Below are positions 10,510 to 25,199 of a stretch of 32,000 bases of DNA, one piece after another. The notes below the pieces were generated by a model. The model ran no database searches. It saw only the letters and a program-made list of their open reading frames with translations, and was not told the DNA's origin. Source of the DNA: an uncultured Methanobacteriaceae archaeon (GTDB taxonomy: Archaea; Methanobacteriota; Methanobacteria; Methanobacteriales; Methanobacteriaceae); the NCBI GenBank assembly GCA_963831915.1, contig CAWHRV010000008.1, positions 245,788-277,787 of the forward strand. The letters are read 5' to 3'. Position 1 is the first letter of the stretch, and every line of letters starts with the position of its first letter. The position numbers and the translations under genes are program-made.

Positions 10510-10551
10510 CCATAAACCCAAAACCATGGTATGTTGTCAAAAACATTCTAT

Positions 10552-10710
<159 letters not shown>

Positions 10711-23779: not shown

Positions 23780-25012
23780 ATGGAAAACATGTCCCCAAAT
23801 GTATTAAAAAAGATTGAAGACCTCAAAACGGAGATAAAAATCCTAAAAGAGGATAACACTAAAACCAAACGTAACCTCATGTGGAAGGTTAGGAAGCTCG
23901 AAAAGGATAAAGTCCTGATCGAAAATGAAAAGATGAGGCTGGACAGAGAAGTAAAATCTCTAAGGGGAGAGATTGAAAGGTTCAGATCACCACCACTAGT
24001 AATTGCTACAGTTACTGAAGTTTTAGACGACGGTAGGGTAGTTGTAAAAAGCAGCACAGGCCCTAATTTTGTTATTGGATATTCACGATTCTTAGATGAA
24101 AAGTCTCTCGAACCTGGTGTTCGTGTGGCGCTTAACCAGCAGACATTTAGTATTGTACACGTTCTGCCATCAGAAAAAGACCCAATAGTTACTGGTATGG
24201 AAGTGGAAGAAAAACCTGATGTTGCATACGAACAGATAGGCGGATTAGAGGAACAAGTAGTAGAAATAAAGGAAACTGTTGAACTACCCCTTAAAAAACC
24301 AGAACTGTTTATCAACATAGGTATAGAACCTCCAAAAGGAGTACTACTTTATGGACCTCCTGGAACCGGAAAAACATTGCTTGCAAAGGCAGTTGCACAC
24401 GAAACAAATGCCACCTTCATAAAGATAGTTGCATCAGAATTCGTTAAAAAGTACATAGGTGAAGGTGCGAGACTTGTAAGGGGTGTTTTCGAACTTGCTA
24501 AGGAGAAATCTCCAAGTATAATTTTCATAGATGAGATTGATGCCATAGCTGCTAAAAGGTTAAAAAGTTCCACCAGCGGAGATAGGGAAGTTCAGAGAAC
24601 ATTAATGCAATTACTTGCTGAAATGGATGGTTTCGAAGGCAGGGGTGATGTTGGGATAGTTGCAGCAACTAACAGACCAGACATACTAGATCCTGCACTT
24701 TTAAGACCTGGACGTTTCGACAGGTTCATCGAAGTTCCAATTCCTAATGAAGATGGTAGAAATGAAATATTGAAGATCCACACTAGAAACATGTCTTTAG
24801 AAGAAGACGTAGACATTAGACATATTGCATCTCTCTCAGAAGGAGCTTCAGGTGCGGATCTAAAAGCCATATGTACTGAGTCGGGTATGTTTGCTATTCG
24901 GGAAGAAAGATCTACTGTTAAAATGAACGATTTCTTGGATGCTGTTGATAAAATAGTTGGCATGGAACACGACGAAGAAATGAAAAAAGAAGCTGGAGTT
25001 ATGTTTGGATAG
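23780..25012 (+). CDS. pan: Proteasome-activating nucleotidase PAN (AAA+ ATPase)
   Basis: N-terminal coiled coil ([19 protein letters not shown]...). OB region. Walker A GPPGTGKT. Walker B IIFIDEID. Second region of homology [27 protein letters not shown] Shine-Dalgarno. Confidence 0.93.
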
Positions 25013-25035
25013 ATCCGAAAACTCCAATTTGTTTA

Positions 25036-25050
25036 TTTTTTTTAAAAAAA
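25036..25050. terminator. T8-A7 tract after pan
   Basis: TTTTTTTTAAAAAAA starts 24 nt after the pan stop. The A-rich half may also serve as a TATA-like element for the sRNA downstream. Confidence 0.45.
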
Positions 25051-25063
25051 TAATTTATTGTTT

Positions 25064-25119
25064 GCCTATGATGAACCCTATGAGCTCTGATACGTGATGA
25101 ATGATGGGCGATCTGAGGC
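25064..25119 (+). ncRNA. Box C/D small RNA (2'-O-methylation guide)
   Basis: GCC-T, then C box ATGATGA (25068-25074), 12-nt guide ACCCTATGAGCT, D' box CTGA (25087-25090) and TAC. Then C' box GTGATGA (25094-25100), 12-nt guide ATGATGGGCGAT, D box CTGA (25113-25116) and GGC. The ends GCC/GGC pair. Total length 56 nt. It is relatively GC-rich inside an AT-rich spacer. Confidence 0.85.
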
Positions 25120-25199
25120 TCTCAATTTAATATTAATAATATTTCTTTATTTTTGAATAATTCTAAAATGAGTCAAAAATTTTATAAAAAAATTTGATT

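Follow-up and report, generated by a model that had tools for sequence, protein, structure and literature searches.

A conserved dual-guide box C/D sRNA of Methanobacteria with predicted targets in intron-containing pre-tRNA-Met and, probably, 23S rRNA

Positions 25064-25119 on the plus strand of the window (the whole 32,000-nucleotide stretch analyzed here, from contig CAWHRV010000008.1 of the uncultured Methanobacteriaceae assembly GCA_963831915.1) are a complete archaeal box C/D sRNA of 56 bases with two guides. It is very likely a dual-guide RNA, probably derived from the 3′ tail of the pan transcript, which addresses C34 of pre-tRNA-Met through its D′ guide and, probably, C2558 of 23S rRNA through its D guide. 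In the model that we propose, the sRNA would be cut from the end of the pan mRNA, reach its length of about 56 nt by trimming, and assemble with L7Ae, Nop5 and fibrillarin, the genes for which are present, into a methyltransferase RNP. The D′ guide pairs with the intron-containing elongator pre-tRNA-Met so that C34 falls at the +5 position, where it would be 2′-O-methylated before splicing, and the GGG at the start of the intron would restrict this guide to the elongator. The core of the D guide would pair with U2555-A2564 of 23S rRNA (E. coli numbering), with C2558 at +5.

All elements of the sRNA lie on the plus strand. The 5′ half of the terminal stem, GCC (25064-25066), pairs with GGC at the 3′ end (25117-25119), and a single U (25067) separates it from the C box AUGAUGA (25068-25074). 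The 12-nt D′ guide ACCCUAUGAGCU (25075-25086) follows, which is antisense to G30-A37 of pre-tRNA-Met and to bases 1-4 of its intron, and is bounded by the D′ box CUGA (25087-25090), which is evident both from the sequence and from relatives. A 3-nt linker, UAC (25091-25093), the K-loop, which is free to vary in homologues, leads to the C′ box GUGAUGA (25094-25100), also supported by homologues. The 12-nt D guide AUGAUGGGCGAU (25101-25112) contains a 10-nt core, UGAUGGGCGA (25102-25111), that is antisense to UCGCCCAUUA of 23S rRNA (E. coli 2555-2564), and ends at the D box CUGA (25113-25116). The bases at +5 are G25082 upstream of D′ and G25108 upstream of D. An initial annotation, made from the letters of this DNA, had placed the sRNA and all of its boxes correctly to the base, and its two 12-nt guides, 3-nt linker and GCC/GGC stem can all be read back from the sequence. 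The element thus has the C and D boxes with a terminal stem (k-turn), the internal D′ and C′ boxes with a short linker, and the spacers of about 12 nt that mark archaeal C/D sRNAs. Both guides also find complementarity of at least 9-10 nt in the correct register with a plausible +5 site, as that annotation had proposed for a true guide: the D′ guide forms 12 of 12 pairs with pre-tRNA-Met and the D guide 10 pairs with 23S rRNA.

A search of the genome for the box pattern returned a single strict hit. The pattern RUGAUGA-N10-13-CUGA-N2-9-NUGAUGA-N10-13-CUGA, applied to both strands, occurs once in the 2.29-Mb genome, at 25064-25119, and in none of five block-shuffled genomes. In the genome searches, 8,000 bases (C6:216001-224000) were read as N; the single rRNA operon was found elsewhere on that contig (C6:230310-235090). 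A relaxed box pattern yielded one extra, doubtful site (C8:225218-225286). The source genome, that of a Methanobacterium-like member of the class Methanobacteria with a G+C content of 35%, seems to carry very few C/D guide RNAs, and seven C/D sRNAs have been reported for M. maripaludis, a mesophile. Near-identical DNA occurs in freshwater-sediment, wetland and soil metagenomes. The proteins of a C/D RNP are encoded in the genome: fibrillarin (PF01269, 311 bits) and Nop5 (PF01798, 218 bits) by adjacent genes on contig C8, and L7Ae by a gene matching PF01248 with 96.5 bits. At the Rfam gathering threshold, 25064-25119 matched no family. The best matches by E-value, over 25064-25118, were archaeal C/D families that remained below threshold, namely sR1 (RF01152; 38.2 bits against a cut-off of 45) and sR2 (RF01139; 36.9 against 42). 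The score against sR49 (RF01303) was 12.8 bits, with a cut-off of 50, and it is chiefly the boxes that account for the likeness to these three families. The window also contains a head-to-tail pair of tRNA-Gly genes (GCC and UCC) at 10551-10702, separated by 1 nt.

The sRNA was found in 38 of 40 sampled relatives, which represent four families of the class, at 82-95% identity, and this degree of conservation argues that it is not a chance motif. Probing with the guide alone recovered it from five further genera. Among 43 Methanobacteria homologues, both spacers are exactly 12 nt long, positions 2-12 of the D′ guide are invariant, and so is the core of the D guide, the 5′ flank of which may be A, C or U and the flank beside box D any of U, A, G and C. 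The D′-C′ linker takes 17 forms of 3-7 nt. The first base of each C or C′ box alternates between G and A; for the C box, 31 of the 43 sequences have G and the other 12 have A, and the remainder of that box is invariant. The terminal stem of relatives is GCC/GGC, AGCC/GGCU or GGCC/GGCC. Second copies of the sRNA occur in two genomes, G013 (C162:10438-10489, locus L168, which runs into the contig end) and G154, one of whose two copies lies close to the beginning of a contig; they may be genuine or may result from duplication in the assembly.

In the window the sRNA follows pan, the gene for proteasome-activating nucleotidase (23780-25012, plus strand; TIGR01242, 641 bits), at a distance of 52 nt from the stop codon. 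It usually lies just 3′ of pan in relatives as well and is found elsewhere in a few species; the next gene, for precorrin-6A reductase, is convergent. The gap measures 49-68 nt in the genus of the window, 22-26 nt in a Methanobrevibacter-like genus and 11-15 nt in Methanothermobacter, in family f3 and in M. fervidus. Because gaps of 11-15 nt are too short for a promoter, the sRNA most likely arises by processing of pan mRNA. A T-rich run, UUUAUUUUU (25146-25154, plus strand), begins 27 nt and ends 35 nt after the sRNA and is a possible archaeal terminator; nearly all relatives likewise have T runs after the sRNA. A search of genome contigs for pan homologues was uninformative about synteny, and most of its hits were unrelated AAA ATPases. 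No sequencing run of RNA from this organism was found, but the locus is covered by RNA-library contigs of relatives. One, from a soil metatranscriptome and differing at 28 positions, belongs to a relative and spans 24812-25120, from inside pan to one base past the sRNA; another, from a rumen metatranscriptome, matches exactly 25064-25119 between unrelated flanks. These are assembled contigs, which document the presence of the sequence in the libraries but give no ends, strand or abundance, and the libraries may include contaminating DNA. Word shares below 0.1 in sequencing runs, and uncovered stretches in RNA contigs, were not counted as evidence.

The D′ guide finds its target at an exon-intron junction. 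Three tRNA(CAU) genes were identified in the genome with ARAGORN, and one of them, the elongator tRNA-Met gene (G000:C8:487865-487975, outside the window), is interrupted after A37 by an intron of 36 nt with GGGUAUU at its 5′ end. At G000:C8:487895-487906 of this precursor the D′ guide forms 12 of 12 possible pairs (11 Watson-Crick pairs and one G-U pair, G30-U) with the sequence GGCUCAUA followed by the intronic GGGU, so that C34 lies at +5. When G-U pairs are allowed, this is the sole full match of the guide in the genome apart from its own antisense, and it outranks every other site in rRNAs and tRNAs. Two proposals of the initial annotation are thereby borne out: that G25082 points to C34 of a CAU tRNA-Met, and that the GGGU tail of the target belongs to an intron inserted after position 37. 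Its first target base, given as A, has to be corrected to G30, which places a G30-U wobble beside box D′.

Seven of the ten core pairs of the D′ guide involve G31-A37 and three involve the first three intron bases, GGG; the core CCCUAUGAG that is typical of guides for Cm34 of tRNA-Met likewise spans the junction here with C34 at +5. The other two tRNA(CAU) genes, an initiator (A1 start, GGG/CCC anticodon stem) and what is probably tRNA-Ile2, read GGCUCAUAA and lack the intronic GGG, which leaves only seven of the ten core pairs. Because G30-G31-CUCAUA is common to all three genes, it is the intronic GGG that would restrict the guide to the elongator, and because the spliced elongator itself falls to seven core pairs, methylation would have to precede splicing. 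Judging from this pairing, the D′ guide should direct 2′-O-methylation of C34 on the intron-containing precursor. The intron begins GGG in all 39 relatives examined, one of which is from another phylum, and the pre-tRNA-Met gene including its intron is 97-100% identical across the genus of the window and the Methanothermobacter family. The papers searched contained no modification map for tRNA-Met or 23S rRNA of Methanobacteria.

The intron of tRNA-Met carries a further conserved feature. An invariant element, GCUCU(G/A)AC(U/C), is complementary to the D arm of the same tRNA (GGUUAGAGC; loci L121-L157), and the match comprises 9-10 Watson-Crick pairs in family f3, whereas the genus of the window and Methanothermobacter have 11 pairs, three of them G-U. 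In the otherwise variable introns of family f3 it forms a conserved island, and all of the differences within it are neutral with respect to pairing. Neither M. fervidus nor G040, the genome from another phylum, has the element. In the minimum-energy structure of the precursor predicted by RNAfold, the D-arm helix is formed and the target of the guide is left unpaired. Pairing of the D arm with this conserved 9-11-nt element may hold the precursor open and keep the anticodon region free for the RNP.

An intron of another tRNA gene in the genome also shows C/D-type boxes. The tRNA-Trp gene (G000:C8:797398-797542, outside the window) contains a 69-nt intron with the order UGAAGA, CUGA and AUGAUGA-CCAAUUGGAGUA-CUGA, the second guide of which puts C34 at +5; the first guide, AAGUGCGCACU, does not fit U39. 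The intron of archaeal tRNA-Trp is reportedly a box C/D guide for Cm34 that acts on the intron-containing pre-tRNA. The guide associated with the name of Clouet-d'Orval (2001) lies within the intron of its own target, whereas the sRNA of the window is a separate gene that would act in trans.

The initial annotation named no target for the D guide, and the best candidate is now helix 92 of 23S rRNA. The core of the guide forms ten contiguous pairs (nine Watson-Crick pairs and one G-U pair) with 2626-2635 of the organism's own 23S rRNA, which align with E. coli U2555-A2564, that is, with the last two bases of the A loop and the 3′ strand of helix 92. The base at +5, opposite G25108, is C2558 (position 2629 of the organism's own 23S rRNA). 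All ten invariant bases of the guide pair at this site and both variable bases are unpaired. Archaeal C/D RNPs read no more than 10 nt of their substrate, according to PMC7229835, which cites Yang, Lin and Ye (2016), so an invariant 10-nt core with variable flanks is the pattern to be expected. The 15-nt target in helix 92 is identical in four other genomes, one of which is from another phylum. A different guide, that of M. kandleri sR64 (AUAGUGGGCGAG), forms ten pairs with helix 92 and only seven with 16S rRNA, and its label sits in the block of the 23S alignment that holds helix 92, at an exact site that could not be read (Dennis et al., 2015; PMC4644070). When the core is shuffled, 3.5% of the resulting sequences match some site in 8 kb of stable RNA just as well, which makes the match suggestive rather than proof, and it counts against helix 92 that the G-U pair could be improved by a G-to-A change, yet the G of the guide is invariant. 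On balance, base pairing and conservation make it reasonably probable that the D guide targets helix 92 beside the A loop, with C2558 at +5.

Other partners of the D guide, and compensatory changes in either guide, were also considered. An exact target of the D guide occurs nowhere in this genome, nor does an exact 10-mer target occur in three complete relatives, except for the antisense of the guide itself. Two sites at which all 12 bases pair when G-U is allowed (C7:141778 and C8:359468) are antisense to coding frames and were set aside as chance matches. A nine-pair fit with the pre-tRNA-Met intron exists in G040 (UUGCCCGUC), and nothing comparable was found in Methanobacteria. Because both guides and both of their targets are invariant, there is no true covariation. 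Guide position 1 and tRNA base 30 looked compensatory in G040 (C30-G against G30-U), and five more genomes were inconsistent with this. In genus g48, which belongs to the class of G040, the guide for 23S rRNA carries a G-to-A change at position 3 (AUGAUGGGCAAA; genomes G361 and G362) that leaves eight contiguous pairs; the 23S target of G361 is unchanged, which makes the case uninformative as to covariation, and a search of G362 for the helix 92 stretch found none. The guide of this genus may be decaying.

Whether the element is a guide RNA at all, and on which form of tRNA it would act, can be judged from these data together. That 25064-25119 holds nothing but chance box-like motifs, or a terminator or 3′-UTR element of pan, might be suggested by its position in the 3′ region of pan, the T runs that follow and the lack of an Rfam match at threshold. 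Such an origin is extremely improbable, since the box pattern occurs only once in the genome and not at all in the shuffles, boxes and guides are conserved whereas linker and flanks vary, some relatives carry the element away from pan, and both guides have fitting targets. It is also very unlikely that the D′ guide acts on mature tRNA-Met, or on every tRNA(CAU), and that its pairing with the intron is incidental. All three CAU tRNAs do share GGCUCAUA and would offer 7-8 pairs, but the CCC of the guide and the GGG of the intron are both invariant over two phyla, and seven pairs fall short of the 9-10 found efficient in vitro (PMC7229835). Moreover, the Haloferax guide needs the intron-containing precursor, at least as the title of Joardar (2011) has it.

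For the D guide, the site that competes with helix 92, either in its place or in addition to it, is C1402 of 16S rRNA (E. coli numbering) in the decoding center, a target that we regard as doubtful. The organism's own 16S rRNA offers nine contiguous pairs (ACCGCCCGUCAC) with C1402 at +5, one terminal A-U pair fewer than 23S rRNA, and substrates with nine pairs are methylated efficiently in vitro (PMC7229835). At two of the three positions at which the two sites differ, the base of the guide fits both (a U facing A or G, a G facing U or C), and such a compromise between two targets would account for a G-U pair with helix 92 that has never been improved. At guide position 2, however, the invariant A pairs with U2555 of 23S rRNA and not with C1399 of 16S rRNA, where a G would serve both; guides that fit the 16S site better carry GGGCGG (M. 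kandleri sR114 and S. acidocaldarius sR122), and M. kandleri sR64 fits helix 92 only. The 16S alignment block that includes C1402 bears no label for sR114, sR122 or any sRNA of M. maripaludis (Dennis et al., 2015; PMC4644070). The D guide might instead be an orphan that methylates no rRNA and is kept because it aids RNP assembly, makes a chaperone-type contact or serves some other RNA. This would agree with the observation that, in sRNAs directed at tRNAs, usually one of the guides works and the other lacks a target (PMC7994747), as well as with the missing exact 10-mer target in the three complete relatives and with the 3.5% of shuffled cores that find an equally good site in stable RNA. An orphan guide should drift, however, and drift is indeed seen in the second guide of the homologues from Haloferax, Pyrococcus and Methanosarcina, whereas the ten bases of this core are invariant in 43 Methanobacteria genomes and, in a class of another phylum, recur in 27 of 38 genomes, with flanks that vary freely, so that we hold the orphan reading, too, to be improbable.

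The class in another phylum to which G040 belongs offers the same two guides in a different order. In 27 of its 38 genomes the same 10-nt core stands beside a CUGA box, and 12 of the 13 loci that were read (L169, L188-L199) are sRNAs that also carry the guide for tRNA-Met. Because these loci were picked by the pattern of the 23S guide, the independent observation is the linked tRNA-Met guide. Their order is C, 23S guide, D′, linker, C′, tRNA-Met guide and D, and their terminal stem, GUC/GAC, shows a two-sided change of the middle pair. The tRNA-Met guide also stands at D in all published candidates (haloarchaea, Methanosarcinales, Thermococcales and M. jannaschii), in which the other guide is not conserved. 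As it stands at D′ here, the form found in Methanobacteria is a circular permutation of that found elsewhere. The permutation possibly arose by tandem duplication with loss, or through a circular RNA intermediate.

The family to which the sRNA belongs is already known. C/D-guided formation of Cm34 on intron-containing pre-tRNA-Met has been published for Haloferax (PMC2584109; PMC4033218), a parallel that the initial annotation had drawn correctly, and a guide of this kind has been predicted for 17 archaeal genomes (PMC2584109, Additional file 5), always with the tRNA-Met guide upstream of D; in the window, as in the 43 genomes of Methanobacteria, that guide precedes D′ instead. Like the sRNA of the window, sR-tMet of Haloferax volcanii is a stand-alone RNA, and its guide GCCCUAUGAGUG pairs with the anticodon loop and the intronic GGG so that C34 is at +5. 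It differs in having the guide at D, the degenerate boxes UGACGA and CCGA, a linker of about 21 nt and a second guide that is not conserved, whereas the sRNA of the window has the guide at D′, canonical boxes, a 3-nt linker and an invariant second guide. The homologues from Pyrococcus (sR49, RF01303), Thermococcus, Methanosarcinales and M. jannaschii share the predicted target and a near-identical guide core, CCCUAUGAGC; in the group of Pyrococcus sR49 this guide is at the D position, unlike that of the window sRNA. In humans, SNORD97 and SCARNA97 (PMC6601510) are likewise box C/D guides for Cm34 of elongator tRNA-Met, but they are intron-encoded eukaryotic snoRNAs that act on an intron-less tRNA. 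The two guides are found on separate sRNAs in M. maripaludis, and not on one as here: sR102 carries a guide for tRNA-Met (ACCGUAUGAGCU), and sR106 (AAGAUGGGCGAG), like M. kandleri sR64, is a relative of the D guide (Dennis et al., 2015; PMC4644070, supplement). Both sR102 and sR106 are abundant in RNA-seq, and no M. maripaludis sRNA is labeled in the 23S alignment block with helix 92 (PMC4644070).

For Methanobacteria themselves, a literature search on C/D sRNAs found nothing beyond the supplement of 2008, in which a candidate from M. thermautotrophicus (659833-659771) with the guide ACCCUAUGAGCU is listed (Grosjean et al., 2008; PMC2584109, Additional file 5). This is the locus of the match in the relative G037 (659746-659802). 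The listing forces the guide to the D position, which gives a degenerate C box, UGAUGU, and unpaired ends. Conservation in 43 genomes supports boundaries with a D′ guide followed by a D guide over that listing, so that the gene boundaries published in 2008 for M. thermautotrophicus are now corrected.

A wider reading would join several of these observations, such that the intron of tRNA-Met is kept both for its GGG tag and for opening the D arm, the D guide serves C2558 of 23S rRNA as well as C1402 of 16S rRNA, and the same RNA is permuted between two phyla; we think it unlikely that all of these parts hold together. The sRNA of the window is a sound but ordinary member of its family, and none of the findings changes the known picture of C/D RNPs. 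Within its own genome it is the only canonical stand-alone C/D sRNA, in a class that is very poor in such RNAs. Its D guide, invariant over two phyla, points to a candidate methylation site beside the A loop. Its D′ guide supports the view that RNA-guided formation of Cm34 in elongator tRNA-Met, known in haloarchaea and predicted in Thermococcales, would extend to Methanobacteria, and the intron of tRNA-Met thereby gains a concrete job, as the tag that would single out the elongator among three tRNA(CAU) species.
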